A stretch of DNA of 64,000 nucleotides from a phage. This document shows, one piece after another, positions 1 to 41,675 of this stretch (its first letter is position 1; each line of letters starts with the position of its first letter). The position numbers and the translations under genes are program-made. The stretch lies in the NCBI GenBank assembly GCA_019326865.1, contig GCA_019326865.1_4101.1; one strand, given 5' to 3'. Under the pieces are notes generated by a model. It was not told where the DNA came from. It saw nothing but the letters and a program-made list of their open reading frames with translations, and ran no database searches.

Positions 1-95
1 AATAATTGAATCATATAATGTACAAGAACTTGATGTGAACAGTATTAAGTAGTATAATAAATAATAATATATTATATGTTAAAGGAGGGCACACG

Positions 96-1337
96 ATGCC
101 TAGTGATTATAATAATGGTGATATGAAGCACAGAAATGGTGCAATTGTTCAACATTCAAAACGCAAGTCGGAGTACCGCCCTGCTGGAAACTATCATAGT
201 GGTAGAAAAATGAGTCGTAACCAAAGCACTGGTGCACAAGGTGTAGAAAATGCAAAGCCAGGTGAAGTAACAGATACTTCCAAAATGAATCAACATGAAA
301 AATTAAAATACATGAATGCTTTGGGATTACTTAATGCTCATCAAAAAGAGCAACTAGCTGCAATGGATAAAGCACAAGAACGACCAGAAGCAGCAGAAGC
401 CCCCGCACAATCAAAAGCGACTAACCCTGTCAAAGAACTGTCTGATAAGTTAGGTAAGATCTTTGCAAATAAACCCCAACTTATTCAAGGTATTGTCAAA
501 GAATTGCAATCTGTACCTAAAGAAGAATTAAAAGTCAAAGCACAAGCTGTTCTGGATGCAATGAAAGGAAATACCAGTACTGAACCAACCGAAGTATTCA
601 GTACTATTATGCGTGCACTGGAAGGTAAACAACAAGGTGAAGAACGTGGTGATGAAGTAAGTCTTGAACGTGTTCTTAAAACATTTGATAGTATTGGGAA
701 AGAAGACCGTGTTAATGCACAACAGGTTAAAAATGTACTAGCAAAATTGGAAAACCGTCTAGAAGGTAAAGATGATAAGATTAAATTGGTATCCGATGCA
801 GTTGAAAATGCACTTAAATCTTATGTACAAGGTGAAAAGAGTCGTTTTGTAACTGCTATGGATGCTGCATTCAATACTATGAAAAAGTACGAAGCGGATC
901 ATGGAGAGAAGGTAACACGAGATGGTTATTTGATGCGTGATGATGAAGAAGGTGCAGTGGAACAGAATGATGTTCATTCTGACGAAGATATTGATGACAT
1001 GGAAGCAGAACTGTCACAGGACCGCCAAATGACTGAAAAATCTCACAATGAACTAAAGAAATTAATGCAGTGGGTTGCAGACGTAGGTGAAAAGGCGGGT
1101 GCTGACAAGAAGAGTATCAACCGAAACCTAAGTTGGATTAAAGATAAGGTTGGTAATAACGCTCGTAAACTACAAAAAGCATGGACTGATGTAGTGAATG
1201 GTGCAGTAGATATTGACGTTGAATCTGGTGAAGCATATGATTATGCATTGATTACACTTGATGATTCTTTTCGTGACTACGAAAAAGGAAACGTGACTCC
1301 TTGGGAAAAAGACATAATGAGCAAATACGGTAAATGA
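96..1337 (+). CDS. hypothetical protein (413 aa), highly charged/acidic, helix-rich
   Basis: Long ORF; SD aaaggaggg ~7 nt upstream of ATG; hairpin terminator directly downstream. Confidence 0.7.
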   Translation: MPSDYNNGDMKHRNGAIVQHSKRKSEYRPAGNYHSGRKMSRNQSTGAQGVENAKPGEVTDTSKMNQHEKLKYMNALGLLNAHQKEQLAAMDKAQERPEAAEAPAQSKATNPVKELSDKLGKIFANKPQLIQGIVKELQSVPKEELKVKAQAVLDAMKGNTSTEPTEVFSTIMRALEGKQQGEERGDEVSLERVLKTFDSIGKEDRVNAQQVKNVLAKLENRLEGKDDKIKLVSDAVENALKSYVQGEKSRFVTAMDAAFNTMKKYEADHGEKVTRDGYLMRDDEEGAVEQNDVHSDEDIDDMEAELSQDRQMTEKSHNELKKLMQWVADVGEKAGADKKSINRNLSWIKDKVGNNARKLQKAWTDVVNGAVDIDVESGEAYDYALITLDDSFRDYEKGNVTPWEKDIMSKYGK

Positions 1338-1344
1338 TAACAAA

Positions 1345-1372
1345 AAGGTTGACCTCGGTCAGCCTTTTTTGT
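1345..1372 (+). terminator. rho-independent terminator hairpin (ggttgac..gtcagcc + T-run); also carries TTGAC -35-like box
   Basis: Inverted repeat followed by tttttt, immediately after stop of 96..1337. Confidence 0.6.
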
Positions 1373-1406
1373 TATCATAGCTTTCCTAACTACAAAGGAT
1401 GACGTG

Positions 1407-2048
1407 ATGACTAAGCAAGAAATATTCAAAACATTAATTGACATTTTACGTTCATCTAAAACTCGTTGTGCAATGGAGTTTGATATTCCTTACGCTGAAC
1501 GAGTCATCTTTCCACAAGTAAAAGAGGCAGGGCTTACTTTACTTGGTATGGGGATGTACTCTGTAGTAGTTGAACATAAAAACTATCCAGGTCGTGCATT
1601 TAAAGTAACCACGTCACGATGGGATGGTTTTCGTGCTTATGCAAAGTACTGTATTGATAACACAGGAACTAAGTTTCTTCCTGTAATATACAGTGCAAAC
1701 GAGCAAGGAAACTTTGGATGGTATGAGATGGATAAGTACTACCCTATCATTAAACAAAAAAACAATTATGATGACTTTGTTAGCACTAAAATTGGAGATT
1801 TGTATTCGTATGCACATGCTGGTCAGCACGTAACTTCAGTGAATGAACTGCGTGGAAATTCAGAAGAGATTGCAATTGCAACTGTTGTAGCTAACATAAT
1901 GAAAGAGTTTCATGGTCGTTTTGTACCAGACATTCATTCCAGTAATGTAATGATGGATAAAGATGGAAATTTATTCATCACTGACCCTATTTCGTGTGAT
2001 GTACGTCGAGAAATACCAATCACTGAAGAAGACCCAATTTTTTATTGA
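1407..2048 (+). CDS. hypothetical protein, protein-kinase-fold-like (Gly-rich loop, AFKV lysine motif, C-terminal HSSNVMMDKDGNLFITDP)
   Basis: ORF with SD aaaggatg; alternative GTG start at 1404; motif order resembles kinase subdomains but catalytic Asp not canonical. Confidence 0.55.
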   Translation: MTKQEIFKTLIDILRSSKTRCAMEFDIPYAERVIFPQVKEAGLTLLGMGMYSVVVEHKNYPGRAFKVTTSRWDGFRAYAKYCIDNTGTKFLPVIYSANEQGNFGWYEMDKYYPIIKQKNNYDDFVSTKIGDLYSYAHAGQHVTSVNELRGNSEEIAIATVVANIMKEFHGRFVPDIHSSNVMMDKDGNLFITDPISCDVRREIPITEEDPIFY

Positions 2049-2111
2049 CAGAACTTGTGTTCTGGTGTATATTAAGTGAATTATAAACAAATTGTGACAC
2101 AGGATTAAATC

Positions 2112-2393
2112 ATGCGTTCATTTGAAAACTTAATAGGTAAACTTCTTTTATCTGAAATTAGTGAAGACGTTAAGGAATTATGCAAATCAAAAAGTTACAT
2201 TCATTTGGATGAACTGTTTGTTAAGTACGGAGAGATTAGTTTTAAATCATTATTTGTTTTTACTATGAAAGTACATAGTTTAAAGTACTTCGATTTAAGT
2301 TATAAAAATGGTCAACCAAATCTTTATCATATGTATTATCTCAAGAATATAGAAGAAGCTCATATCTTATTTTCTGAATATCTGAAGGTATAA
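2112..2393 (+). CDS. hypothetical protein
   Basis: ORF in operon-like spacing. Confidence 0.5.
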   Translation: MRSFENLIGKLLLSEISEDVKELCKSKSYIHLDELFVKYGEISFKSLFVFTMKVHSLKYFDLSYKNGQPNLYHMYYLKNIEEAHILFSEYLKV

Positions 2394-2394
2394 A

Positions 2395-2733
2395 ATGGAA
2401 CAATATTTTGAATTAGTTAATAAAGTGTCATTCTATGTAGTGTCATTGATTTGGGTTTATTTCATGTTTTGCTACATTATTGCATTCTTCCGATATACTA
2501 CTTTATATGAACGTATCTATTATGATGCACCAATTTCATTCTTGGTGTTCTGTGCATGTACCTTGGGAATATTAGAAGTACTGATATGTGGATATAGTAC
2601 TGATGGATTAAATCTGGTATCGGTATTGACTGGGTTATCACTTGGTGTTATGATATCTTTCTTTCCAGTATGGTTGTTCTTTGAACTGATCCATCGCATT
2701 GATGTATGGCGTTCTAATATCCCTGAAAAATAA
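2395..2733 (+). CDS. small multi-TM membrane protein, family A (C-terminal R.NIPEK-type tail)
   Basis: Hydrophobic ORF; paralogous to neighbours and to 11430-14210 cluster. Confidence 0.65.
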   Translation: MEQYFELVNKVSFYVVSLIWVYFMFCYIIAFFRYTTLYERIYYDAPISFLVFCACTLGILEVLICGYSTDGLNLVSVLTGLSLGVMISFFPVWLFFELIHRIDVWRSNIPEK

Positions 2734-2736
2734 GGA

Positions 2737-3084
2737 TTGATAATGATTTATTACACTAACGTGTTTGCCTATGCTGTTGCTTGCATTTACATTGTTTACT
2801 TCTTATTTGGTGGAGTGCTTTGCTTCTTTAAGTACAAAACACTGTTTAATAGGATGTATCCAAATCATCCTATTGTAGTTGTACTTTTGATTCTTTCTCT
2901 TTCCCAAATAATCGTTGAAACTACATTGGGTATCAGTAGTGTACATTATAGTTTTGGCACTATAGTAATTATTACTATGCTTATTGCATACATTTTAGTA
3001 CTTGGATATGGTATATTTGGTAATGTTGGAATGAAAATGTATCATCGAATTAAAACCTTACGTGATAATCTACCGGAGCGTTAA
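2737..3084 (+). CDS. small multi-TM membrane protein, family A
   Basis: Paralog; C-terminal RDNLPER. Confidence 0.65.
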   Translation: MIMIYYTNVFAYAVACIYIVYFLFGGVLCFFKYKTLFNRMYPNHPIVVVLLILSLSQIIVETTLGISSVHYSFGTIVIITMLIAYILVLGYGIFGNVGMKMYHRIKTLRDNLPER

Positions 3085-3085
3085 G

Positions 3086-3430
3086 ATGTATAATTTAAAC
3101 CTAATCTCATATATTATAACAACCCTGTTTACATTTTATGTCTATGTTGGTATAATCCTACTGTACTTTAAATTTTATAAAGTGTTTAACCGTTTCTATC
3201 CTTCAATGGAGAATGAGTTCTTCTTTGTGTTGTACGTCTGCTACACGCTAATGGCTACTTGTTTCACTGTAGTTGATGGTATCATTGGTATTAAAGCAGA
3301 TGGACCAAATGGTAGTACGCTGGTTGCATTTATTCTTACCGGATTCTTGGCAACTTATATTACCTTCATTTCAACATGGTCAGTGGTTGAATTTCTCTTA
3401 CGACTACGAAAGAATATGCCGAATCGATAG
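3086..3430 (+). CDS. small multi-TM membrane protein, family A
   Basis: Paralog; start chosen at ATG after SD ggag and upstream stop; C-terminal RKNMPNR. Confidence 0.6.
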   Translation: MYNLNLISYIITTLFTFYVYVGIILLYFKFYKVFNRFYPSMENEFFFVLYVCYTLMATCFTVVDGIIGIKADGPNGSTLVAFILTGFLATYITFISTWSVVEFLLRLRKNMPNR

Positions 3431-3439
3431 GAGACATAT

Positions 3440-3697
3440 ATGTTTGCATTGCGTAACAAAAACACTAAAGAATTATTATGTATTGATACAGTATGGGATT
3501 GTGCGGGTTCAACTACTGTTCTTGAAGAAGGTACTGGATATTGCGTGTTTGTTGTTCATGATAGGAATGAACTCGAATCATTGCTTGCTGAGTTTAATGC
3601 TGGTGGTAATCCTAACAGTACTAAATTCCCTGTGATTGTTAATCCTGCACCACCTGGTTCTTATGAAATTCTAACACTATGTGAGATGGATAAGTAA
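3440..3697 (+). CDS. hypothetical protein
   Basis: ORF, tightly packed. Confidence 0.5.
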   Translation: MFALRNKNTKELLCIDTVWDCAGSTTVLEEGTGYCVFVVHDRNELESLLAEFNAGGNPNSTKFPVIVNPAPPGSYEILTLCEMDK

Positions 3698-4077
3698 TGC
3701 GTCAAATGTACAAAGTGACCGAGCTAAACAAGCGTCTAGTTAAACAATCAATGTTCGAGGATAAAGAGTCTTATTATAACTTTAAACGTGCTGTAGAGGC
3801 TGCTATCCACATTCAGAAGCTTAAAGAACGTGGTTGTATTATTTTGGAAAATGGATCGGAAGTTGTATCGGATGACTTTAGTGTAGCGTTTGATGTTTCA
3901 CCTGATGGGACGCTATCAATGCCCCGCTTAGGAACTGGAAACATGACTGTTTGGGTTGGCTTCACTATGGGTAATGTACCAGGCACAGTGTATGTAGATG
4001 ATATGGAGTTGAAAGAAAGCTTCAAAAACTTATCTTATCTTGAACCACAATACGCACATGAAATGAATTTATTTTGA
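3697..4077 (+). CDS. hypothetical protein
   Basis: ORF overlapping upstream stop (ATGA-type coupling). Confidence 0.55.
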   Translation: MRQMYKVTELNKRLVKQSMFEDKESYYNFKRAVEAAIHIQKLKERGCIILENGSEVVSDDFSVAFDVSPDGTLSMPRLGTGNMTVWVGFTMGNVPGTVYVDDMELKESFKNLSYLEPQYAHEMNLF

Positions 4078-4153
4078 GTTGACAAACACATTCAGTACTG
4101 TATAATGCTTATCAAGGGGATGAACTTCTCATCCCTACAATCGAGGAACGACC

Positions 4154-4708
4154 ATGATTACTTTTAAGAAAACTGCTAACCACATCCATGAAATCTACAT
4201 TAACGGTCACAAAGCTGGCCTTCTTCGTTTACTCAGCCATCATCCTGATGTTATTGTATCTGATAATGAACCCAAAGATTGGCGTGTCTTTTTCTTTGGG
4301 AAGTACAGTGATTTTCAAGTATCAAATCTGAAGAACATTCGTTCAGTATGCACGTTAACTGAAATTAAAGAAAAGTTAGTAAAAGCATTGAAAACTAATC
4401 CAGATGCAGTTCTTCCACCAGATAACTTTGTAGAGAAAGGTTATGCCTTAGCTCATTTCAAAGATGGCACTATTCAATCTATCAGCACTGCATATGAATA
4501 TCAATGGACTGAGTACTTCACTTATGGCTCCCGTGAAACTTTGATGGCTTCACGTAGTAAATTGGAAGAAGTAATAACTATTATAAATGAACGTGAACGT
4601 CATTTATATGATAAACCTGAAATGTGGAGTTCAAATTACATTGACCGTATTGACTATGTTATTATGACTCCAATCTTTGACACTGCTTACTATGATTCTT
4701 TGAAATAA
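4154..4708 (+). CDS. hypothetical protein (184 aa)
   Basis: ORF with SD gaggaacgacc-ATG. Confidence 0.6.
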   Translation: MITFKKTANHIHEIYINGHKAGLLRLLSHHPDVIVSDNEPKDWRVFFFGKYSDFQVSNLKNIRSVCTLTEIKEKLVKALKTNPDAVLPPDNFVEKGYALAHFKDGTIQSISTAYEYQWTEYFTYGSRETLMASRSKLEEVITIINERERHLYDKPEMWSSNYIDRIDYVIMTPIFDTAYYDSLK

Positions 4709-4719
4709 GGATAACTTAT

Positions 4720-4896
4720 ATGAAACTACGTACTCGTAATCGTTTGATGGATGCACTGTACCACGAACAATGTACAATGAATGATGTAAAGCGTCAGTTA
4801 ATGTATACATATCAGTTACCAGCCCGTGCTGCGAAACAACGTTCCAAAGAATTACTGAAAGAAGCTATCGAGTACTGGGAATCTGATTCGTACTAA
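4720..4896 (+). CDS. hypothetical small protein (58 aa)
   Basis: Short ORF filling gap, SD aagga upstream; below track cutoff. Confidence 0.4.
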   Translation: MKLRTRNRLMDALYHEQCTMNDVKRQLMYTYQLPARAAKQRSKELLKEAIEYWESDSY

Positions 4897-4935
4897 TATT
4901 ACGTGATATGTCACGTTAATTAAGTGAGACTATAA

Positions 4936-5196
4936 ATGAAAATTTTATTAGTTCTAATACTACTAATACTACTAATTGTTTTACCATTTACTTTAGTATC
5001 TCCTGAACTTGCATGGAATGTGTTTGTGTACTTAGTATGTACTATTGCGGTAAATGGTATCTTGTTCTTAGTTCTATTCATAAATGGAATAGGACACGGG
5101 GGTGGGTGGACCAGTACTGCTGATATTGTACATAAAACCACTATGTCTTTATTTGTAGTGTGGAATTTATTCTGGACTTGGTTTGTGTTCTTCTAA
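4936..5196 (+). CDS. small hydrophobic membrane protein
   Basis: ORF encoding Leu/Ile-rich TM segments. Confidence 0.5.
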   Translation: MKILLVLILLILLIVLPFTLVSPELAWNVFVYLVCTIAVNGILFLVLFINGIGHGGGWTSTADIVHKTTMSLFVVWNLFWTWFVFF

Positions 5197-5209
5197 ATGA
5201 AAAAAAAAT

Positions 5210-5581
5210 ATGAATATAGATTTGAAAGGTGCAACCAGAACTGTTATCCTCATTGGTGAATACGCTATCAAGATTCCAACCTTCAAAAGCTGGAAGTTAT
5301 TCTTAACGGGAATGATAGCTAACCTAAATGAACGTTCGTGGATGCAGTACTCCAATCGTAGTGACAGTAGTATCTGTCCTACGTTGTGGTCATCATGTAC
5401 TGGACTAATAACTGTACAGAAACGTTGTAAGCCAGTACAACATAGGGGTTTATTTTGGGTGGAGTTGTGTGCTTTAGCATTGAATTCTGAGTTAAGTATT
5501 GACTTCTTCTATTCAGATGCGAAGCCAGAAAACTTTGGGTATCTGGGTGGTAAGTTAGTTAAACTTGATTATGGAGATTAA
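5210..5581 (+). CDS. hypothetical protein, kinase-fold-like (AIKIP; DAKPENF catalytic-loop-like; DYG at C-terminus)
   Basis: Motifs D-x-K-P-E-N and D-Y-G seen in translation; protein ends right after DYG. Confidence 0.5.
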   Translation: MNIDLKGATRTVILIGEYAIKIPTFKSWKLFLTGMIANLNERSWMQYSNRSDSSICPTLWSSCTGLITVQKRCKPVQHRGLFWVELCALALNSELSIDFFYSDAKPENFGYLGGKLVKLDYGD

Positions 5582-5582
5582 T

Positions 5583-5852
5583 ATGTACGCATTGTATAAT
5601 AAAGAAAAGAAACAATTTGCTAAGGTTGAAATTTCGATTGATACATTTGATATGTTGGAGTACTGTATTGTAACGGACCCATGTGCTAACTTGTATTACG
5701 TTCATGATGACGTATCAGTACTGCAACGATTGCTTGAGAGTTCAAAAAGTCAATGTCAGGGAATCCATGATGGTTCATCCTATGAAACTCCTGAGTGTTC
5801 ATATGGCTGTCTGGATGGATATGAGATTGTTAAGTTAGGGATCGTTGAATAA
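5583..5852 (+). CDS. hypothetical protein
   Basis: ORF; start at ATG after SD ggag and upstream stop. Confidence 0.5.
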   Translation: MYALYNKEKKQFAKVEISIDTFDMLEYCIVTDPCANLYYVHDDVSVLQRLLESSKSQCQGIHDGSSYETPECSYGCLDGYEIVKLGIVE

Positions 5853-5858
5853 AGAAAA

Positions 5859-5885
5859 GGGTTGACTTTAGTCAGCCCTTTTTTC
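5859..5885 (+). terminator. terminator hairpin gggttgac-ttta-gtcagccc + T-run
   Basis: Perfect 8-bp stem, T-run; recurs at 9255 and 10539. Confidence 0.7.
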
Positions 5886-5891
5886 TATAAT
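5862..5891 (+). promoter_or_regulatory. sigma70-like promoter embedded in terminator hairpin (TTGACT -18- TATAAT)
   Basis: -35 lies in hairpin loop, -10 tataat just after T-run, SD and ATG follow. Confidence 0.55.
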
Positions 5892-5919
5892 CATTTCATC
5901 GGAACGGAAGGATGTTGAA

Positions 5920-6402
5920 ATGAACTATTTAGATTTAATTAATACGTATGTCATCAGCCCATATCTTAACGATGAAAGTATCAAATGTGTAGTATCTGTT
6001 GATAATCATCCAAATGGTGCATTAGAACTATTCGGTGCAGGACAGATTAACAATCGTTGTGGGTATACTTTTGAGTACTTACCAGAAAGAGATGTATTTG
6101 GTTGTTATGACCACAAAATCAAAAAAGGTGCTATATGGGGTAATCACAAAGATATTGCACAATCTTCACTTTTCGAAGATCATAATGGATATATGTGGCG
6201 TTCTCTTGGTGCAGTCCTACTTGATATCGCCCGTAGATATAAAAAGCGTATAACTCTTACTTATACACATACAGTTGAATATAAAAATGAAGTACAAGTA
6301 GAAGATGAAGAATTTTTTAAAAGTATCCCGTACATTGAATTCAACTTCCAAAACGGGTATGCTATATATCCTGATGATTTTATTGGTGAAAAATATTTTT
6401 AA
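5920..6402 (+). CDS. hypothetical protein (160 aa)
   Basis: ORF downstream of promoter/terminator element, SD ggaaggatg. Confidence 0.6.
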   Translation: MNYLDLINTYVISPYLNDESIKCVVSVDNHPNGALELFGAGQINNRCGYTFEYLPERDVFGCYDHKIKKGAIWGNHKDIAQSSLFEDHNGYMWRSLGAVLLDIARRYKKRITLTYTHTVEYKNEVQVEDEEFFKSIPYIEFNFQNGYAIYPDDFIGEKYF

Positions 6403-6493
6403 AAAATATTTGAAAAGAAAAGAATAAGTGCTATAATTATTACATCAAGACAACAAACACTAACATGTAAACGCTACTAATTAGGAGACACAC

Positions 6494-6904
6494 ATGATTA
6501 ACAAACATTTCGCAGTTTCTAAAACAGTAACCATCGATAACGAATGGGAAATTACTATTCTTAATGATCCTGCTCGTGGGTTGCTTGCAGAGAATCTTGT
6601 ACAGAAATACATCGACTGTAAGTCTGAATTGATTATTCACGACCGTACCAAATTTCTTCTCATCAATGGCAAGAAGTGTAAAGTATTAGTATTCACGGAT
6701 AAAATGAGCCGTGCAGACATTATCACCAAATTGGTAAGTTCTTCACGTCACCGCCCAGGAGTTAACAAATCTATCGAAGAAGTTAAAGATATGAAGCCTG
6801 GTGATTTATTCATTATTGCGGGTTTTGATTCTAAAACAAGAGAAATGTACATTTCAGAAATGTACACTAATGCTGAAATGCGTAACAAATTCTTCTCTAA
6901 CTAA
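6494..6904 (+). CDS. hypothetical protein (136 aa)
   Basis: ORF with SD aggagac. Confidence 0.6.
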   Translation: MINKHFAVSKTVTIDNEWEITILNDPARGLLAENLVQKYIDCKSELIIHDRTKFLLINGKKCKVLVFTDKMSRADIITKLVSSSRHRPGVNKSIEEVKDMKPGDLFIIAGFDSKTREMYISEMYTNAEMRNKFFSN

Positions 6905-6935
6905 TCAACCTAATTATGTATTATACAAATCTATA

Positions 6936-8153
6936 ATGGATAAAAATATGATCTTCGAAACAGAAAAAACTTTACTTGAAACTTATACTTTAGAAAATCT
7001 TGTACAACTTAATCTGGCCCGTCCTGATATTCAACGAAACTGGCAATGGAAAAGTAATAATCAAAATAATCTTATAATTTCTATTCTAAAGAATTCACCA
7101 ATTGGACAATTTTTGGTATGGAATGAAACTTCTTCAAATACAATGTACATTACTGATGGACGCCATCGTTATACTGTAATTTCAAACTTCATTAATAATA
7201 AGTTCCCAGTAACAGTTAAAACCGAAAGTGGAACCAAAGATTATTATTATGGTTCTGACGATCCAATCGAAGAAGAAAACATTTCACTAAAACTTGGTGG
7301 TAAAAGTAAGACTTGGAATTTCTTATCAAAAGAAGAGCGTAATGCTTTTCGCAATAAAGAAGTATCAGTAACATTTGTTCATACAGATGATGCTGAGAAG
7401 ATTTCTGAAATGTTTATGGCTATCAACACTGCTTCATCTAATTTGTGTAAAGTAGACTTGCTGGTATGCAAGCACCACAAAAATGCATACATGAAACGTA
7501 TTGATAAACTATTTTCAATTGAGATTGAAAAAGATGACCAAATGGCAGTTCTAGTTAGCGATTTCTATCGTGCAATCGGACACTGTAATGTCAACGGTAA
7601 TTACGAGAAACATTTAGCTAAACTTAAAGCTAACCCAAAAGTTCAGAAGCGTGAATTTTTTGAGATGTATTTTATGGTACGAGCCTTCACCAAATTGTGT
7701 CGTGATGCTTTAAACGATACATTGAATTCATATCGTATGCCTAAGATGAATAAACAAATTGAAGATGCTATTATTAGTACTGAATCACTGAGTGAACAGC
7801 AAGCTAACGCCGATTTTGTTCAGTTCGTGAATGCAGTTCGTGAGATGAACCTTGTATCTCCAATAAAAGATTTACAAAAGTTTCAATTCATCCACGAAGA
7901 TATGAAGAATACCTTTAACAAGCGTCTTTTTTGTATCTTAATGGGATTATATTATGCTTACGGTACACGTTTACCATTGCATTTTCGTGATGTTTGGTGT
8001 GCCATTTATAATGAAATGTCAGAAAAAAGTACTGAACTACCAACAAACGGGACTGATAGTTCTTCTGCTATTGTAGCTGGTATCCAATTGATTGAACCGT
8101 ACTTTAGTTCAGCCTTTAATAATATTTCATTGAGTGCTCGCGTGGGAAAGTGA
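6936..8153 (+). CDS. DUF262/ParB-like (GmrS-like) domain protein; motifs PDIQRNWQW and ITDGRHRYT
   Basis: N-terminal motifs resemble DUF262 signature (QR..W ... DGQQR); start placed after upstream stop; ends GTG-GGA-AAG-TGA. Confidence 0.55.
   Translation: MDKNMIFETEKTLLETYTLENLVQLNLARPDIQRNWQWKSNNQNNLIISILKNSPIGQFLVWNETSSNTMYITDGRHRYTVISNFINNKFPVTVKTESGTKDYYYGSDDPIEEENISLKLGGKSKTWNFLSKEERNAFRNKEVSVTFVHTDDAEKISEMFMAINTASSNLCKVDLLVCKHHKNAYMKRIDKLFSIEIEKDDQMAVLVSDFYRAIGHCNVNGNYEKHLAKLKANPKVQKREFFEMYFMVRAFTKLCRDALNDTLNSYRMPKMNKQIEDAIISTESLSEQQANADFVQFVNAVREMNLVSPIKDLQKFQFIHEDMKNTFNKRLFCILMGLYYAYGTRLPLHFRDVWCAIYNEMSEKSTELPTNGTDSSSAIVAGIQLIEPYFSSAFNNISLSARVGK
8144..8150 (+). other. candidate -1 programmed frameshift heptamer G_GGA_AAG immediately before stop
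   Basis: X_XXY_YYZ heptamer in zero frame of DUF262 ORF; -1 frame continues directly into HNH ORF. Confidence 0.4.
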
Positions 8154-9254: not shown

Positions 9255-9280
9255 GGGTTGACTTAGGTCAGCCCTTTTTG
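9255..9280 (+). terminator. terminator hairpin gggttgac-ttag-gtcagccc + T-run
   Basis: Same element as 5859. Confidence 0.7.
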
Positions 9281-9315
9281 CTAAAATTCTTTCATCGAAA
9301 CGTGAGGATGAATAC

Positions 9316-10531: not shown

Positions 10532-10538
10532 CAAAAAA

Positions 10539-10564
10539 GGGTTGACTTTAGTCAGCCCTTTTTG
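10539..10564 (+). terminator. terminator hairpin gggttgac-ttta-gtcagccc + T-run
   Basis: Identical to 5859 element. Confidence 0.7.
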
Positions 10565-10571
10565 CTATAAT
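10542..10571 (+). promoter_or_regulatory. promoter embedded in terminator (TTGACT..TATAAT)
   Basis: Same architecture as 5862. Confidence 0.55.
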
Positions 10572-13838: not shown

Positions 13839-14210
13839 ATGAGTTACCGTGAGATATTTTCCATTATTTCAATTATTATGTTCAGTGCTGGGACATTGGT
13901 GTGGGTATTATATTTTTTCTGTGTATCACCAGTGTATAATATGTTATGTAATATTAAATCAAGTTCTGGATATATGACTTTTATGATCTTTATGGGATAT
14001 TATTGTCTAAGCATTTTAGGTGTTGTTTTGGTTGTTATATTTGATGTAGGGCCAAATAAGGATGGTCTGAAAATGTATGAGTTAATAACTATGTTTGGGT
14101 GTATGATACCAACTGCACTAATGTTTGTAGCTATTGGTGCTGGATGTATAAAGTTATACAATTATTTAAAATCCATTCATCATTCCATTCATAATAAACG
14201 TATGTCATAA
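13839..14210 (+). CDS. small multi-TM membrane protein, family A
   Basis: Paralog. Confidence 0.6.
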   Translation: MSYREIFSIISIIMFSAGTLVWVLYFFCVSPVYNMLCNIKSSSGYMTFMIFMGYYCLSILGVVLVVIFDVGPNKDGLKMYELITMFGCMIPTALMFVAIGAGCIKLYNYLKSIHHSIHNKRMS

Positions 14211-14217
14211 TAAAAAT

Positions 14218-14237
14218 CCAGTACTGAATAGTACTGG
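14218..14237 (+). terminator. hairpin ccagtac-tgaata-gtactgg
   Basis: Perfect 7-bp stem after membrane array. Confidence 0.45.
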
Positions 14238-14251
14238 ACTAATAAGGAGTT

Positions 14252-14902
14252 ATGATGAAATCAAAATTAGGTTTGTTTTATGGAAACTACTTCATTAAAC
14301 AGCGTAAATTCATAAAAAAATACTTCTCCACAGAGAAATCTAGTCCTATAATTTTTAAAAGACCAAAATATAATTTTTACTTAGCAGGTGCTAAACAGTC
14401 TAAGAAATTCATTACATTTTTAAATAAAAACAAAATTAAAGCTTCTTATGTTGAAACTAGAAAGAACTCATCGATAATTCCTGGTGATTTCATTGAATAC
14501 GGATGTTTCAATATTAAGTACAATGATAGCACATACTGTATGGATATTGATTGCAATACATCAAATCTTTTTAACATTGTAATAAATCCATCGAAACAAT
14601 ATAATGTTTATGGTGATTCAATTATCAAATTAATAAAAAACAAAGATTGGTTTGATTTTGAAATAAATGTTTTAGATGAAAATTATGATGAAGTTCCAGT
14701 TAACCCTGAAATATGTGATATATTAAACAGTTTAAAAGGTAGTAGCTACAATATACCATCTGATTTAATGTTTCAGTACTCTTTAATACATAAAGATATT
14801 GAACATTATATTGTGTGTGCTAAAATCTTGAATTATCTGTATGATGAATTTAAAATGAGTTCTAAAATAACAGCATATACTCTTTATAATATTTCTATAT
14901 AA
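14252..14902 (+). CDS. hypothetical protein (216 aa), very AT-rich
   Basis: ORF with SD aaggag. Confidence 0.55.
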   Translation: MMKSKLGLFYGNYFIKQRKFIKKYFSTEKSSPIIFKRPKYNFYLAGAKQSKKFITFLNKNKIKASYVETRKNSSIIPGDFIEYGCFNIKYNDSTYCMDIDCNTSNLFNIVINPSKQYNVYGDSIIKLIKNKDWFDFEINVLDENYDEVPVNPEICDILNSLKGSSYNIPSDLMFQYSLIHKDIEHYIVCAKILNYLYDEFKMSSKITAYTLYNISI

Positions 14903-14913
14903 TTTAAAATATT

Positions 14914-14939
14914 AAAGCCAGTACGAGAGCACTGGCTTT
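14914..14939. terminator. bidirectional hairpin aaagccagt..actggcttt between convergent genes
   Basis: Inverted repeat with flanking A/T runs on both strands. Confidence 0.55.
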
Positions 14940-14943
14940 AATA

Positions 14944-16089
14944 TTATTTTTTCCAAGGAAGTAACGAAGTTGGAATCTTGATAGGTATATTTGATGCAAC
15001 AACATCAGGAAAATTTGCATCTCCACAAACATACAAATTATCGATTTCGTCTATCAATAATGTATAGTTGTAACTTCTACAAAAACCACTTAAGACTCTT
15101 CCCTCTAATGCAGATAAATTCATTTCAGTGAATTGAGTGATATATGTTTCATTTGAACCAACACCACATTGACCATTAGCATTTATACCACAAGTAAGCA
15201 ATTTATTATTGTTTTGAATTACACATGATGGTCCAGCAAGGTTCGTACCTAGTTCACCTACAACATTAACTTCACCTTTTAATGATAAATTTGGGATCAC
15301 TGTACTCATTGGGACTCGAGATGTATTTCCGACACCTGCTTGCCCTGAGCCATTAGTGGATGCTACTTTAACAGTACCGTCATTAAGAAAAATATAAGAT
15401 GTTTCGATTGTATTAACTGCTTGAGTAGCTGATGTTATTGACGTATCCTGTTTGAATTTAAGTACATTTGTCGTTGTTGAACCAGAGATAAATGTAGCAC
15501 CTGCGTACCAATATGTTCCATCCTGGAGTACTAAACCAGTACTTCTAATTGAACACCCAGCACTTCGAACATTTTCTATATGACTATATGTAAAGGTTGA
15601 TACGATTGAAGATTCACCATTACCGAACACCCCACCAGTACCTGCACCACAGAAAAACCATTTACCGTTTTTCAAAAATACACGCATACAAGCAGAAATA
15701 ACCACACTATCAATATCACTTGCAGTTACACCAAAATCGGTAAATAAATGAGTTATATCAATCCAATTACCACCAGTATTTGATGGGAGATGTGGAATTA
15801 CAACTCTAGTCCCTGTGTACCAGATTGTATCATCATCTTTAATAACAAGCGTACCTTGAACACCACCCCAATACCTGGTTACATTAGTATTAACAAGTGT
15901 CCACTCATTAGATGATTCCGTTGAGCCATTACCACCTTGACCATATGATGATGAACCGCACCAGTATAAATTGCCATTTTTATTTAAATAAAATTTTGCA
16001 TCAGCCGAGCATTGTAATCTGTATTTGAATACGGTTTTTGGTGCTGGTGCAATATTTGCATACTTAATCATTCTTCCAAAAGGTAACAT
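14944..16089 (-). CDS. RCC1-repeat-like (beta-propeller) protein, paralog 1; N-terminus MLPFGRMIKYAN
   Basis: Repeated G-x-N-x-x-GQ-x-G-like motifs (e.g. LYWCGSSSYGQGGNG); conserved 5' cassette. Confidence 0.7.
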   Translation of the reverse strand: MLPFGRMIKYANIAPAPKTVFKYRLQCSADAKFYLNKNGNLYWCGSSSYGQGGNGSTESSNEWTLVNTNVTRYWGGVQGTLVIKDDDTIWYTGTRVVIPHLPSNTGGNWIDITHLFTDFGVTASDIDSVVISACMRVFLKNGKWFFCGAGTGGVFGNGESSIVSTFTYSHIENVRSAGCSIRSTGLVLQDGTYWYAGATFISGSTTTNVLKFKQDTSITSATQAVNTIETSYIFLNDGTVKVASTNGSGQAGVGNTSRVPMSTVIPNLSLKGEVNVVGELGTNLAGPSCVIQNNNKLLTCGINANGQCGVGSNETYITQFTEMNLSALEGRVLSGFCRSYNYTLLIDEIDNLYVCGDANFPDVVASNIPIKIPTSLLPWKK

Positions 16090-16138
16090 AATTTCTCTCC
16101 TTCATTCATTATACTGTATTTAACCCAATTAAGAAAAG

Positions 16139-16155
16139 CCAGTATCAAGTACTGG
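16139..16155 (-). terminator. hairpin ccagtatcaagtactgg
   Basis: Perfect inverted repeat after stop of 16163..17512; recurs at 17561 and 19997. Confidence 0.55.
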
Positions 16156-16162
16156 TATTTTA

Positions 16163-17512
16163 TTATTGTAATGGAATTTCAGTGAGTGTTTTATATGTAC
16201 TTCCGTTATACACCCCTCTCCAATATACTTTACCATCAGTACTAACCACTAATAATCCATATGTTGTAAACCCAAGAGTACCACCAACATACATAGCATC
16301 TTTGATTCTAATACCAATGTCTTCATATGTAAATGACGCGACTGCACCCGCTTGCCATGAAGGACTAGCGTAGTAATCACTATAAACACCATGTGCTTTA
16401 TATATTGATGTTGTTCCTGGTTCAAAAATTACAGTTCCACAGTAGTTCATTCGTATTTTAGTACTGGATGAAGTTGGTACATTTATACCTACGTCATCTT
16501 TTATCCCTGTGGTTAGGACGTTAAAACCACCCGCCACACGGTTGACGTCATTCGCACCGATTAAATACATACCAACGTTGTAGCCCATATAAAACACACT
16601 AGAGCTTCCATTCCAGAAAGAAAAACCACCACCATTCCCACAGCGATATAGTTGTGAATTTGAGCAGTACATCATACCTTCGTTTGTCGCATCAAATTCA
16701 TCTGCTTTTCCTATTGTAGCTACTGTAGTCCAAGTTTTAATTACTTGGTTTGTACTAGCTGGTGTTTGTATACCATATCGTATATTATACCCTTTACCGA
16801 CTATTGTACCATCTTCTAATTTGGCATAAAGTACAGGTCTATTACCAACAAAATACATATTATTGTGTGACATGTCTATTGTGCATCTTAATGAAACTAC
16901 TTTTTGTTTCAATTGATTATCTTTAGTAAAAGAAGTAAAGTAGTAATCTGATGTTGAGTTGTTTATTAAACCTTGTATTGACAACCCCATATACCAGATT
17001 TCTCCATTACTGTTCAATGCTGCCAAAATACAACTATATTTTGAAGTATATGCTGGGGTTACTGATGTTGCTGGTCCTTTATCATATCCACCACAGAATA
17101 CCATCTCCACAACTTCACCCACGTTAGCAAAATAAGAAGATACATTGATAAAACCATTTGTTATAAAAGGTGCTGTATTTATACTTGAATGTGTGAATAT
17201 CCCATTTGCATATACACCACAAAAATGATATGAACCATCATTATCTTGGACTATTATTCCATTTGATAGTAACCAAAAATTGTTTACATTTTTTCTTACT
17301 AATTCGATTCCTGCCCCATTAGTTGGCGTTATACCAAAAGAAACATATTTTGTTTGACCAATTCCATATAAATTTCCATTTGATGCTAATATTGCACCAA
17401 ACCAATTACCACCACCATTCTTGTTATGACCCATACCTATAGAATCAAATTTCTTAACAGTAGGAGCTTGTACTTTGTTCCCATAATTCACCATTCTTCC
17501 AAAAGGTAACAT
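16163..17512 (-). CDS. RCC1-repeat-like protein, paralog 2; N-terminus MLPFGRMVNYGN
   Basis: Conserved N-terminus and upstream motif; G/S/T/N-rich repeats. Confidence 0.65.
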   Translation of the reverse strand: MLPFGRMVNYGNKVQAPTVKKFDSIGMGHNKNGGGNWFGAILASNGNLYGIGQTKYVSFGITPTNGAGIELVRKNVNNFWLLSNGIIVQDNDGSYHFCGVYANGIFTHSSINTAPFITNGFINVSSYFANVGEVVEMVFCGGYDKGPATSVTPAYTSKYSCILAALNSNGEIWYMGLSIQGLINNSTSDYYFTSFTKDNQLKQKVVSLRCTIDMSHNNMYFVGNRPVLYAKLEDGTIVGKGYNIRYGIQTPASTNQVIKTWTTVATIGKADEFDATNEGMMYCSNSQLYRCGNGGGFSFWNGSSSVFYMGYNVGMYLIGANDVNRVAGGFNVLTTGIKDDVGINVPTSSSTKIRMNYCGTVIFEPGTTSIYKAHGVYSDYYASPSWQAGAVASFTYEDIGIRIKDAMYVGGTLGFTTYGLLVVSTDGKVYWRGVYNGSTYKTLTEIPLQ

Positions 17513-17560
17513 ATTTCCCTCCTTTATTCATTATACTATATTTAATACTAAAAGAAAAAG

Positions 17561-17577
17561 CCAGTATCAAGTACTGG
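17561..17577 (-). terminator. hairpin ccagtatcaagtactgg
   Basis: Same hairpin, after stop of 17585..18694. Confidence 0.55.
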
Positions 17578-17584
17578 CATTATG

Positions 17585-18694
17585 TCATTTTGGTAAATTA
17601 ATTTTAGTAAAGGCTGCAACATCCTCGATTGCACCAGGAATTGCGTAATACGATCCAGTACTATATACATCTCCGTCTTTGGTTAATATTGATGTTAAAC
17701 CATCACTAAAAAGAACATCCCTAATCTCACTAACTTCAACGGGTAATTGTAAATTAGTAGCACTATATATTGCACCAGTTTGAGAATTGTTTAATCCCAA
17801 ACCACGGTTCGCCCCAACACCCTTCTGATATGTACTAGTAATTACCATTTGTGTAGCAGTATTTAAGGCAGGTGAATTCGTCATAAACAACGGTGAACTA
17901 TTAGGCAAAGTACTTGCAGGAACTGCACGAAATGTAGTTGTATCTGAACTAAGAAAGTTTGGCGTTTGACCACATACGAAATATGATGTACCATTATAGT
18001 AATTAAATGCATTACCACCAATGACTGCATCGATTACACCAGAGCTACGTAATCCCCACGTGTTAATTTGTGTTCGGTTCCCCGTGCCATGCTGACCCCT
18101 GTCATTCCACCCAGAACTATATAACTTATTATCTAATGTAATATACATACTGTCATTTGCATTCGTCATTACTTTACGCACATTAGTAGCACATTGAGTT
18201 AATGTGTAAATTGATGATGAACCAATACCTAAAGCACCACGATATCCATTAGCTCCTGCACCATAGAGTACTGAACTAGTGCTAAGTACAAATATTAAAC
18301 CATACGAACATACAATATTAGCAATTTCACTCACTGGTATAGCACTGGTAAACCAATTAGTTCTTTCAACTAATACTGTGCTGTAAGAAGTAGTTGTAGA
18401 CGATGTGAACCAATATGTTTCCCCTGATGTCCATATAGTATTATCATTTTTAATAATAACAAGTGCACGATCACCTACGAAAAAATTAGAAACATCTGCA
18501 CTTACTAATATCCATGAAGATACCGTGTTTTTATTACCATTTCCAGATTCACCACCTTGATTTCTACCTATGTAATATAAATCATGTGAATCAGTTAATA
18601 AGAATTGACCCTGTGTAGATGCACCAACTTTAATTATATTTTTAGGACCAGGTACAATATTCCCATAATCAAACATTCTTACAAAAGGTAACAT
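17585..18694 (-). CDS. RCC1-repeat-like protein, paralog 3; N-terminus MLPFVRMFDYGN
   Basis: Start placed at conserved MLPF methionine with SD ggag (track start is 15 nt upstream); motifs LYYIGRNQGGESGNG, LYSSGWNDRGQHGTGN. Confidence 0.65.
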   Translation of the reverse strand: MLPFVRMFDYGNIVPGPKNIIKVGASTQGQFLLTDSHDLYYIGRNQGGESGNGNKNTVSSWILVSADVSNFFVGDRALVIIKNDNTIWTSGETYWFTSSTTTSYSTVLVERTNWFTSAIPVSEIANIVCSYGLIFVLSTSSVLYGAGANGYRGALGIGSSSIYTLTQCATNVRKVMTNANDSMYITLDNKLYSSGWNDRGQHGTGNRTQINTWGLRSSGVIDAVIGGNAFNYYNGTSYFVCGQTPNFLSSDTTTFRAVPASTLPNSSPLFMTNSPALNTATQMVITSTYQKGVGANRGLGLNNSQTGAIYSATNLQLPVEVSEIRDVLFSDGLTSILTKDGDVYSTGSYYAIPGAIEDVAAFTKINLPK

Positions 18695-18768
18695 AACTAA
18701 AATCTCCATATAATAATTATAATGTATTTACAAAAAAATACCAGTACGTATTTCAGTACTGGTATCAT

Positions 18769-19950
18769 TTATGGTAAAATGATAGATTGTAACGAACTCA
18801 TACCCAATGCTGGAACACTAGCCTGTGGTGCTGGAGAATTCAATTTTGGTGATGAAACCGCATATGACATTCCTGAACCCAAATCTGGATCAAAAACTAC
18901 AGCACAATAATTCCCACTATATATAAGTCCATTCTTGTATCCTTGTGCACTTTGAATGCATTTCGTGAACGTACCAATATCTGTCGTGGCATTTATTAAG
19001 TTCCTCCCACGATAACCGCAGGTGTATATGAAATTATCATCGCCTATGTACATACTAGAATCCCCAGAAGAACTACATAGATACGACATATAAGCACGCA
19101 TGTTTTTAGGAGCAACTGACAATGTACCTGCATAGAATTTATTATTCGAACCCGTAATATCACCATCACCCAATGCACCAAAACTTCCCCAGCCAGTACC
19201 GTAATATCTCTTATCACTCAAAAATATAATACAGTTGTTATTACACATCTTGATTTGATATATCAATGAAGGATCAACCCCAGGGAATGATTCAGTGAAT
19301 GTTAGAACAGCCGGATCAGTACTAGCATTACATTGATGATATGTATTAGTACCAGCGGACAAGATTGTTCCATTAGCTAACAGAATTCTCGCAGTACCAG
19401 TACCAGCAGTACAAGCAACTGCACTTCCTGCACTTCCGGTGTATATTTGTCTGAAAGTAAAGAAACCAACAGTTTTACTTCCCTGCCCACTCCAACCAGT
19501 ATTATCAACTCCACACGCCCATACTGAACCATCTTGCATGATCATCATTACACCAAAGCGTTCTATTGAAATATAAACAATCTTCGTTGTATCAACTGCA
19601 CTAAATCTAGAAGTTATATCAGTCCATACCTTAACACTTACCGCCGTCGCACTGGAAGTAGGATCTTCACCAGCTATCATTATCCTCCCATTGTTAGTAA
19701 GATACATTGTCTGACTATAACCAGTACTACAAAACTTAACACTATCAGTCTCTGGAACTTTTAACCACTCGTTGTAACGTGTTACGTTAGTGTTATTACC
19801 TAACTGATAATAGTTATTCATCCCAGATACATATAACACACCATCCTTTATTAAACTATAAGTCGCACTATAGTCACTACAGGTATAACGTGTACCCACA
19901 GGTCGCTCAACGACGTTCCCGTACTTAACCATTCTCCCAAAAGGTAACAT
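18769..19950 (-). CDS. RCC1-repeat-like protein, paralog 4; N-terminus MLPFGRMVKYGN
   Basis: Motifs LYVSGMNNYYQLGNN, VWACGVDNTGWSGQG. Confidence 0.7.
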   Translation of the reverse strand: MLPFGRMVKYGNVVERPVGTRYTCSDYSATYSLIKDGVLYVSGMNNYYQLGNNTNVTRYNEWLKVPETDSVKFCSTGYSQTMYLTNNGRIMIAGEDPTSSATAVSVKVWTDITSRFSAVDTTKIVYISIERFGVMMIMQDGSVWACGVDNTGWSGQGSKTVGFFTFRQIYTGSAGSAVACTAGTGTARILLANGTILSAGTNTYHQCNASTDPAVLTFTESFPGVDPSLIYQIKMCNNNCIIFLSDKRYYGTGWGSFGALGDGDITGSNNKFYAGTLSVAPKNMRAYMSYLCSSSGDSSMYIGDDNFIYTCGYRGRNLINATTDIGTFTKCIQSAQGYKNGLIYSGNYCAVVFDPDLGSGMSYAVSSPKLNSPAPQASVPALGMSSLQSIILP

Positions 19951-19996
19951 ATTTTCCTCCTTTATTCATTATACTATATTTAATACAAAAAGAAAT

Positions 19997-20015
19997 GCCA
20001 GTATCAAGTACTGGC
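19997..20015 (-). terminator. hairpin gccagtatcaagtactggc
   Basis: Same hairpin, after stop of 20024..21172. Confidence 0.55.
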
Positions 20016-20023
20016 ATATTAAT

Positions 20024-21172: not shown

Positions 21173-21268
21173 ATCCCCTCCTTATTCATTATATCATATT
21201 TACCCAAAAAACACTTGACACCCTTTCAGTACTGTTGTACGATAGAAGGAATATTAGGAGAACTACAC

Positions 21269-21496: not shown

Positions 21497-21705
21497 ACAC
21501 TATGAGCACTGAACAGTTCTACATCAATGCACTACCAACTAAAAGTCTTCAAGAAAGCTTACTGTATACACAAAAGAATTTTAAAAACTTCAAACGTTGC
21601 CCTAAACTACTGAACTCGTACAGGAATAATATTATAAGAAATGTTTTACAAGGAGAAGAAAGTATGCAATACTATCACATCCTTATCCTTATATTGGAGT
21701 ACTAA
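21493..21705 (+). CDS. small protein, family C
   Basis: Tandem paralog, ATGA overlap. Confidence 0.5.
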   Translation: MNTMSTEQFYINALPTKSLQESLLYTQKNFKNFKRCPKLLNSYRNNIIRNVLQGEESMQYYHILILILEY

Positions 21706-40930: not shown

Positions 40931-40987
40931 TTGACAGTACTCAAATGTTTTAGTACTATATCTATACCAACACAGGAAAAAAACAAA

Positions 40988-41572
40988 ATGCGTAATTATA
41001 CTAAATTCATCCGTACACTGTCAGAAATGGAAACCAACAAAGAGATCTTGACAGCTTGTCGGTTAGCTGGTCTGGAGATCATCGGTGCGGGGTCTTCCCG
41101 TATTGTATTCGCTTTAAATGATCGGTTAGTGATTAAGGTCGCGAATTGTGATGCGGGTGTAGAACAAAATGAAACAGAATGTAAAGTATGGAATTTTTTA
41201 GATTATGACCGACCTCAGTTGAAACAGTTCTTTGCTAAAGTACATATGCATTTAAGCGATCCTGATAATATGTTTATTGTTATGGATCGGTTGAGTACTG
41301 CAAGTAAAGGCAGTGTAAAGCACGTTAACGCGTGCAACGAATTAAAGTACAATATTAAACGTAATGCAATCGAACGCCAGCACCGCTTTGCTGATGCACT
41401 ACAACACGTCGATGATACATTATCAACACTAACGATCAGAGATATCAGAAAACAGAATATCGGACAGGATCGAAATGGACTGATTAAAGTACTTGATTAT
41501 GGTTTAACCCGCAATATCTGGAATCAGTACTATAAAAAGCGTGATGTAAAAGCCGTAACTATAACACGATAA
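40988..41572 (+). CDS. hypothetical protein, kinase-fold-like (IIGAGSSRIVF, VIKV, DIRKQN, LDYG)
   Basis: Gly-rich loop, lysine motif and catalytic/DFG-like motifs in canonical order; start at MRNYTKF. Confidence 0.5.
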   Translation: MRNYTKFIRTLSEMETNKEILTACRLAGLEIIGAGSSRIVFALNDRLVIKVANCDAGVEQNETECKVWNFLDYDRPQLKQFFAKVHMHLSDPDNMFIVMDRLSTASKGSVKHVNACNELKYNIKRNAIERQHRFADALQHVDDTLSTLTIRDIRKQNIGQDRNGLIKVLDYGLTRNIWNQYYKKRDVKAVTITR

Positions 41573-41586
41573 AAAAGATTAAAAAA

Positions 41587-41675
41587 GGGATTGACTCCGG
41601 TCAGTCCCTTTGCTATTATATATTCATTGAGAGATAGCTCACTAGCCCACAGGGTGCGGGAGTGTATCTATTATA
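41587..41675 (+). repeat. ~90-bp repeat element copy 3
   Basis: Matches 34851 copy. Confidence 0.75.

Follow-up and report, generated by a model that had tools for sequence, protein, structure and literature searches.

Until recently, the characterised protein kinases of phages numbered two (PMC8008677). Experiments on the T7 kinase (T7K, gp0.7) have shown that it phosphorylates Ser, Thr and Tyr hyperpromiscuously and is broadly active against defences (PMC13645617). Its kinase domain comprises residues 1-242, with the DFG-equivalent motif DPV located directly ahead of Ser216 (PMC13645617), which shows that a highly active kinase can end about 27 residues past the 'DFG'. The jumbo-phage homologues of T7K, from G17 and Munch, have no shut-off (SO) domain and a relaxed DPV motif (Bartolec et al., Nature 2026, PMC13645617); according to the same authors, what these homologues do and how promiscuous they are is yet to be established (PMC13645617). 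The effectors OspG and NleH are active without subdomains VIII-XI, the NleH genes being carried on lambdoid prophages, and OspG requires E2~ubiquitin for its activation (PMC12756638). The present work concerns three small open reading frames (ORFs), designated ORF1, ORF2 and ORF3 (Table 1), in a stretch of 64,000 nucleotides of phage DNA (contig GCA_019326865.1_4101.1 of GenBank assembly GCA_019326865.1), which is called the window throughout. Each of them is a stand-alone gene encoding the core of a kinase fold, and in each the protein chain ends soon after the DFG-equivalent motif. The first 8 kb of the window are 87-96% identical to Asteriusvirus-type jumbo coliphages of about 350 kb, including 121Q, PBECO4, G17, UE-S1 and ph0011, and on sequence similarity the window is assigned to a phage of this type, kin of 121Q, G17 and PBECO4.

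A first-pass annotation of this DNA had pointed to the three ORFs as kinase-like genes which stop right after the DFG-equivalent motif. All three are present on the plus strand where it placed them, and the order of motifs which it described, a Gly-rich loop, a lysine motif and a catalytic loop with a DFG-like segment, is found in each. The motifs are G48xG50, K67, D176-x-H-x-x-N181 and D194 in ORF1; G7, K21, E41, D103-A-K-P-E-N108 and D120-Y-G in ORF2; and G33xG35, K50, E64, D152-x-x-x-x-N157 and D170-Y-G in ORF3. The description of the loop as Gly-rich is correct for ORF1 and ORF3 but not for ORF2, in which one conserved Gly is followed by an invariant T/S-R (G-x-T-R-x-V). The stop codon is located 20, 3 and 24 residues past the DFG-equivalent Asp of ORF1, ORF2 (D-Y-G-D-stop) and ORF3, respectively, and the early chain end seen in the first pass proved to be a conserved family trait. 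In every family alignment the invariant columns coincide exactly with the motif residues, which argues for selection and not chance. These columns are G48, G50, K67, D176, H178, N181 and D194 in the ORF1 family (alignment A1, 20 sequences with 38-93% identity to ORF1), G35, K50, E64, D152, N157 and D170 in the ORF3 family (A2, 12 sequences, 40-94% identity), and G7, K21, E41, D103, K105, N108 and D120 in the ORF2 family (A3, 15 sequences, 46-98% identity; a deeper ORF2-family profile of 111 sequences is designated A4). Judged from these alignments, the catalytic residues are under purifying selection.

Sequence comparison places ORF1, as a representative from a jumbo phage, in the T7 kinase (gp0.7) family, and this relationship is already known. 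ORF1 matches phrog_15752 ('protein kinase; inhibitor of host transcription...') with E 2e-88 and the T7K PHROG, phrog_2828, with E 2.8e-17. The A1 profile aligns by hhalign with residues 60-224 of T7 gp0.7 (98.6%, E 1e-15) over 163 columns, which extend from the G-loop to DP(V). In GenBank the G17 orthologue bears the annotation 'putative protein kinase, PHA00451', GenBank records label the ORF1 orthologue 'protein kinase', and the precomputed database label PF27024.1 is found on all ORF1 homologues. The first-pass annotation had recognised the three ORFs as a set; it missed this annotated homology, and also that ORF2 and ORF3 constitute one family (PHROG 4301). In the local database copies neither ORF1 nor ORF2 matched Pfam Pkinase PF00069, and no significant named family was found for either of them in Pfam, NCBIfam or PADLOC. 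The frame of ORF1 is open from a GTG codon at 1404, yet all homologues start with MTK, and AGGA is located 6 nt ahead of the ATG at 1407; this ATG is therefore taken as the start, while the residue numbers of ORF1 are counted from the 1404 translation.

The ORF1 chain begins with three helices, which are followed by an N-lobe, the catalytic loop D-I-H-S-S-N and, as the DFG-equivalent, the segment 'T-D-P'. The loop G-x-G-x-[YF]-S and the motifs [FI]-K-V, D-x-H-x-x-N and I-T-D-P are common to ORF1 and T7K. Both have the conserved Lys (K67 in ORF1) and no Glu in helix αC, and both kinase domains end shortly past the DFG-equivalent. T-D-P is invariant in the ORF1 family, with I or L and not V as the third residue of the T7K motif, and the inhibitory Ser which follows DPV in T7K is not conserved in the jumbo-phage clade of ORF1 (A1). 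The two proteins differ in that ORF1 is without the C-terminal SO/DNA-binding domain which targets T7K to nucleic-acid-binding proteins. This loss is the mark of a sub-clade and not evidence against gp0.7 homology, because it has already been described in jumbo-phage homologues (PMC13645617). The AlphaFold2 (AF2) model of ORF1 has a predicted local distance difference test score (pLDDT) of 91.7 and a predicted TM-score (pTM) of 0.87, and its top 50 Foldseek matches in the PDB are all protein kinases or aminoglycoside phosphotransferases (APH).

ORF2 and ORF3 are, as judged by profile comparison, homologous short and long members of a second phage family, PHROG 4301. Both match phrog_4301 ('unknown function'), with E 3e-44 and E 7e-43, respectively. 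Pairwise BLAST aligns them over the stretch from the catalytic loop to DYG only; comparison of the profiles A2 and A3 gives E 3e-5, and hhalign of A4 against A2 gives 96.2% and E 2e-9, the two profiles staying in register for 116 columns between the G-loop and DYG. A hidden Markov model (HMM) of 144 ORF2-family sequences finds ORF3 among the window ORFs with E 1e-6, and four HMMs revealed no further ORF2/ORF3 paralogue or kinase-like ORF among them. The loop G-x-[ST]-R-x-V (G-x-G-S-S-R-x-V in ORF3) and an αC motif G-x3-N-x2-E are common to both families. Beyond what is present in ORF2, the ORF3 chain has an N-terminal helical extension of about 30 residues, an insert before αE, and the 24-residue tail after D170-Y-G. 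The ORF3 frame is open from a TTG codon at 40931, yet 11 of 11 homologues start with MRNYTKF, and the start is therefore placed at the ATG at 40988.

The kinase-fold assignment of ORF2 and ORF3 is solid. The ORF3 family profile matched 267 PDB sequences at E<=1, and all 60 of those listed are eukaryotic-type kinases. The best match is MKK4 with E 2.9e-4, and MKK6, MKK7, PKC and DYRK were also found. The PDB kinases align in register with K50, the catalytic loop and DYG, and the alignment to kinase subdomains, a check proposed in the first pass, thus holds for the ORF3 family profile from the β3 Lys to DFG. ORF3 also has a weak match (E 1e-4) to the PADLOC PD-T4-6 kinase models in the catalytic region. 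The AF2 model of ORF2 has pLDDT 89.4 and pTM 0.80, the five models ranging in pLDDT from 86.7 to 89.4. Its elements follow in the order β1-β2-β3, αC, β4-β5, αE, a short helix and β7-β8, at which the chain ends. The N-lobe of the model is made of strands (E) and a helix (H) at E2-4, E10-15, E18-23, H28-43, E58-61 and E68-71. K21 is located on β1-β3 and E41 on αC, and the catalytic loop is found between αE and β7-β8. The top 50 Foldseek matches of this model in the PDB are all protein kinases, including TTK/MPS1 and Legionella Lpg2603, with a query TM-score (TMq) of up to 0.63. Structure prediction, which the first pass had also named as a check, therefore gave for ORF1 and ORF2 only protein kinases or APH among the top 50. 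In BFVD the ORF2 fold is present in many uncharacterised phage proteins of 117-235 aa, among them the 194-aa RaK2 protein H6X4G3 and a 'protein kinase domain-containing protein' of Ralstonia phage RP12.

The position of the chain end is conserved throughout the ORF2 family. An exhaustive profile search of 1.84 billion cluster representatives gave 1,212 relatives with E<=1e-3, of which 643 reach E<=1e-10; counted as 50%-identity clusters, the relatives number at least 1,212. Nearly all of them are 110-135 aa long, and the match runs to the last residue. In 144 aligned representatives of the 50%-identity clusters, the chain ends within one residue after the Gly of D-Y-G in 104, within three in 122 (85%) and within ten in 133. 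Length and stop position are kept in more than 1,200 clusters, down to less than 35% identity. The rare longer members carry mutually unrelated, unannotated extensions without any Pfam domain. As the stop position and length are conserved family-wide, ORF2 and ORF3 are not fragments, and an end right after DFG is, by this conservation, the native state of the family and not a truncation.

The catalytic residues of the same 144 representatives show a regular pattern. K21 and E41 are present in all 144, G7, R10 and D120 in 142 each, and K105 in 123. The catalytic base is D in 90 and E in 52 representatives, and the metal-binding position is N in 94 and S in 45. These two positions co-vary: D-x-K-x-x-N occurs in 89/144 and E-x-K-x-x-S in 43/144, mixed forms being almost nil. 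This suggests that the D...N and E...S forms are two functional sub-clades which would differ in the coordination of metal or phosphate.

The resemblance of ORF2 and ORF3 to T7K lies in the truncated architecture and probably in the mode of action. Their placement as divergent members of the T7K family was considered but is not supported, hhalign giving 1.9% for A1 against A2 and 0.9% for A4 against A1. A segment 'AGL' before the G-loop is common to ORF1, T7K, ORF2 and ORF3, as recognised by eye only. OspG and NleH are similar as active Ser/Thr kinases of about 170-200 residues which stop soon past the DFG-equivalent. Membership in that group is likewise not supported: NleH1 of E. coli Sakai gave hhalign probabilities of 1.2%, 0.5% and 0.3% (<=1.3%) across A1, A2 and A4. 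NleH1 retains 35 residues past the DFG-equivalent Asp, whereas ORF2 retains 3. The OspG/NleH effectors work in eukaryotic cells, unlike the phage ORFs, and the likeness is one of architecture, not of family membership.

With the canonical eukaryotic-type protein kinases (PF00069; TTK/MPS1, MKK4/6/7, PKC) the phage cores have in common the N-lobe topology and, in register, the VAIK Lys, the αC Glu, D-x-K-x-x-N and the DFG Asp. They differ in that the activation segment (to APE), helix αF and the αG-αI C-lobe are absent from all three chains, as is αD, and ORF2 has less than half the length of a kinase domain. The 933W Stk, PD-T4-6 and Stk2-type proteins are comparable as kinases encoded by phages or prophages and engaged in phage-host or phage-phage conflict. 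However, these are full-length kinases acting in abortive infection (PMC8008677), and no specific relationship between them and the present ORFs was found.

The reading which we favour, and consider reasonably probable, is that the three genes encode autonomous kinase cores which would serve host takeover or counter-defence as protein kinases of constitutive activity and low selectivity. What is proposed here for ORF2 and ORF3 as to catalysis, protein substrates, promiscuity, timing and biological role is drawn from their sequences and from analogy. Each core retains the parts that a protein kinase needs for Mg-ATP binding and γ-phosphate transfer, namely the glycine-loop strands, the β3 Lys, αC, the hinge, αE, the catalytic loop and the DFG-equivalent Asp, and stops ahead of the activation segment, the P+1 loop and αF-αI. 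In ordinary kinases the latter elements form the peptide-binding groove and the regulatory switch. Constitutive activity and low substrate selectivity would be expected because the active site is open, with no gating activation loop and no peptide-binding groove. The kinase genes would be transcribed by the host RNA polymerase from sigma-70-type promoters. Their products may then phosphorylate host proteins, and possibly phage proteins, and in this way the cell would be taken over and its defences blunted, as by T7K. The copies of ORF2-type genes in prophages might mediate exclusion, as 933W Stk does (PMC8008677).

Several observations weigh against this proposal. The literature search gave no biochemical data on ORF2, ORF3 or any other member of PHROG 4301. 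The putative kinase assignment of ORF2 draws on the AF2 model, the homology to ORF3 and the motifs; the ORF2 family profile gave no significant match to PDB sequences, the shallow profile having no match and the deep one aligning in register with TTK at E 0.3. ORF3 scores 18.4 bits (E 0.0016) against Pfam Pkinase PF00069, for which the gathering score is 31.7 bits. Promoter-like matches at positions 1-7000 are not enriched over shuffled sequences, 27 being observed and 33 expected. Helix αF is regarded as the scaffold of the kinase spines, and owing to its absence the cores may depend on a partner or on oligomerisation for their stability or activity. In about 30% of the ORF2-type representatives E...S replaces D...N, whereby a canonical Mg ligand is lost.

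This replacement, found in 43/144 representatives, would also agree with ORF2 and ORF3 being pseudokinases, nucleotide-binding modules or ATPases, which would serve as scaffolds, sponges or switches without protein phosphorylation. The substrate-binding half and αF are wholly missing, the G-loop of ORF2 is degenerate, with one Gly and then T-R, and the small size may be compared with that of phage 'sponge' proteins. We regard such a role as unlikely. Hardly any variation is seen in the β3 Lys, the αC Glu and the DFG Asp, the Lys of the catalytic loop is kept in 85%, and the base is D or E, a pattern typical of active transferases; D/N and E/S change as pairs and not by random decay; and T7K and OspG/NleH are active without subdomains VIII-XI (PMC13645617; PMC12756638). 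Between the two possibilities named in the first pass, a minimal atypical kinase fits better and a pseudokinase less well, because the residues for ATP binding and catalysis do not vary and T7K, the relative of ORF1, is hyperactive (PMC13645617). It is similarly unlikely, in our estimate, that the substrate is not a protein but a small molecule, a nucleotide or signalling molecule, or the ends of nucleic acids. The protein-kinase-like (PKL) fold is also that of small-molecule kinases, the ORF1 model matches APH, and ORF2-type genes are located beside the RNA ligase gene rnlB in T4-like JS10 and beside denV in 121Q/G17 and Pseudomonas Nipunavirus. However, the C-terminal helical subdomain with which small-molecule PKL kinases bind the substrate is missing from these chains, the ORF2 loop D-x-K-P-E-N is a signature of Ser/Thr protein kinases, and T7K, related to ORF1, is a protein kinase. 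Moreover, the neighbours are otherwise not conserved, and in the window the gene past the neighbour of ORF2 has no Pfam match and is not DenV.

A split kinase, in which the core is completed by a separately encoded C-lobe or by a host protein, appears considerably less probable. Without αF, αE would have its hydrophobic face exposed, and there is a precedent in OspG, for which E2~ubiquitin is needed (PMC12756638). A search for such a C-lobe failed on several grounds: no neighbour of ORF2-type genes is conserved across 34 loci of unrelated phages, which argues against a separately encoded partner, the window holds no other kinase-like ORF, and the extensions of the longer family members are unrelated to each other and without Pfam domains. 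The AF2 model of ORF2 is confident as a monomer. The least probable explanation, to which we give hardly any weight, is that these genes are fragments or pseudogenes of full-length kinases, or that they are read through or frameshifted into the next ORF. ORF2 does stop abruptly one residue past D-Y-G, and the following ORF overlaps or abuts its stop codon. Nevertheless, the conserved length and stop position in more than 1,200 clusters effectively refute the fragment or pseudogene, and read-through or frameshifting is implausible since the downstream genes differ among phages (rnlB, denV, terminase Nu1 and unknown genes) and the local 89-aa product has no kinase or Pfam similarity.

The autonomous-core proposal can be extended, although we find the extension rather doubtful on balance. 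ORF2-type proteins, with about 120 residues and an end one residue past D-Y-G, would be the smallest autonomous active enzymes of the protein-kinase fold. They would constitute a general, motif-blind phosphorylation weapon, present in at least 1,200 clusters in lytic, jumbo and temperate phages and overlooked by phage kinase surveys. If this were true, neither αF nor the activation segment would be needed for a kinase, and the weapon would serve host takeover, counter-defence or superinfection exclusion.

ORF2-type genes were found in 118 GenBank phage records, almost all of them as 'hypothetical protein', with two auto-annotated as kinases. The carriers are Asteriusvirus, T4-like Dhakavirus and others, jumbo phages of Aeromonas and Erwinia, and 58-kb Pseudomonas Nipunavirus siphophages. 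Jumbo, T4-like, sipho- and lambdoid phages all have members of the PHROG 4301 family, their hosts being Escherichia, Salmonella, Pseudomonas, Aeromonas and Erwinia. ORF3-type genes are present only in jumbo phages of the RaK2/121Q/Munch/GAP32 type, with sporadic auto-annotation as Ser/Thr kinases. In Salmonella lambdoid prophages an ORF2-type moron, 45% identical, is located between an Rz-like lysis gene and terminase Nu1 (positions 5001-5372 in both locus L039 and locus L040). It follows that the family is carried by temperate phages too; these prophage copies could be expressed late or in lysogens. In one metagenomic phage the ORF2-type gene is found inside nucleotide-metabolism gene clusters.

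The recurring neighbours of the ORF2-type gene are limited to denV (121Q/G17, Nipunavirus) and rnlB (JS10). At positions 2477-3854 of locus L003 (JS10) the mini-kinase gene abuts rnlB, and the gene is located beside denV, which encodes a pyrimidine-dimer glycosylase, both in Asteriusvirus (G17, 6637-7827 of locus L002) and in unrelated Pseudomonas siphophages (PaMx25, 2402-3312 of locus L004). This adjacency may be due to chance, or may hint at a link to nucleic-acid repair. In the window, positions 6939-8153 of the plus strand encode a 404-aa protein with an N-terminal GmrSD_N domain (DUF262, ParB-like nuclease; Pfam E 1e-17), a domain of type IV restriction enzymes which here is encoded by a phage. 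In 121Q and G17 the denV glycosylase gene is found in place of the segment with this gene. Most relatives (121Q, G17) resemble the window only up to near position 5900, and the later segment varies among related phages.

Directly downstream of ORF1, three tandem paralogous proteins of about 112-122 aa are encoded on the plus strand at 2395-2733, 2737-3084 and 3086-3430. They are hydrophobic, apparently multi-pass membrane proteins, ending in ...R(S/D/K)N(I/L/M)P(E/N)(K/R); one of the three was run against Pfam and gave no match. The window has a G+C content of 31-39% and densely packed small ORFs on the same strand. The GC skew is negative (-0.06 to -0.24) at 14000-24000 and positive elsewhere in the window, which suggests a block of minus-strand genes set into an otherwise plus-strand array.

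The features of the three loci are collected in Table 1.

Table 1. Positions of the kinase-core genes and of the associated expression signals in the window.
Feature	Position	Strand	Description
ORF1	1407..2048	+	213 aa; T7K (gp0.7)-like stand-alone kinase domain
ORF2	5210..5581	+	123 aa; mini-kinase core
ORF3	40988..41572	+	194 aa; longer paralogue-type member of the ORF2 family
Terminator hairpin with sigma-70-like promoter (TTGACC-18-TATCAT with TG)	1342..1383	+	directly upstream of ORF1
Terminator/promoter cassette (TTGACT-18-TATAAT)	5855..5891	+	closes the transcription unit with ORF2
Sigma-70-like promoter match (TTGACA-17-TACTAT)	40931..40959	+	ends 29 nt before the ORF3 ATG; consensus match only
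Terminator/promoter cassette	41581..41624	+	immediately after the ORF3 stop codon

In the terminator upstream of ORF1 the stem carries the -35 hexamer TTGACC, and the T-tail runs into TG-n-TATCAT. Cassettes of this kind are present in eight copies on the plus strand of the window, the three of Table 1 and those at 9258-9296, 10533-10571, 34854-34892, 38571-38615 and 43866-43903. Their consensus is AAAAAGGGTTGACT-TYNG-GTCAGCCCTTTTT-GCTATAAT, in which the -35 hexamer TTGAC forms the left arm of the hairpin. Owing to a G.T wobble in the stem, the -35 hexamer is kept on one strand only, and the T-tail leads into the -10 element TATAAT/TATTAT. The cassette has the look of a dual signal for stop and restart between units of early genes; in the annotation of G17 the corresponding sites are marked as terminators only. 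Within 3-4 kb around ORF3 there are four perfect (12/12) sigma-70 promoters, TTGACA-16/17-TATAAT, on the plus strand at 39174-39201, 39443-39470, 39872-39900 and 42013-42040, each in an intergenic gap before a small ORF. The predicted signals, which are consensus matches only, suggest that the kinase genes are transcribed by the host RNA polymerase and thus early.

As a system, the ORF2/ORF3 family is not of a new kind but a more extreme form of the known 'minimal kinase' theme. In PHROGs the function of ORF3-type proteins, and of the ORF2-type above all, is given as unknown; the searched copies of Pfam and NCBIfam contain no family for them, and the literature search found no description of the ORF2-type family of about 120 aa. 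An ORF2-type gene is carried by phage PaulHMueller, which from its name we take to be a phage of the BASEL collection. Proteins of the ORF2/ORF3 type were not picked up as kinases in the survey of that collection (PMC13645617). PHROG 4301, which is large and has been overlooked, could next to T7K be a second, much commoner class of phage kinases. Because one phage has three cores, a T7K homologue among them, redundancy or a division of labour can be tested directly with knock-outs and phosphoproteomics. In kinase structural biology helix αF and the activation segment are treated as an indispensable scaffold and switch. A conserved, widespread family which ends at DFG would move the lower limit of a functional kinase further down, and the ORF2-type core would give a natural minimal scaffold for engineering.

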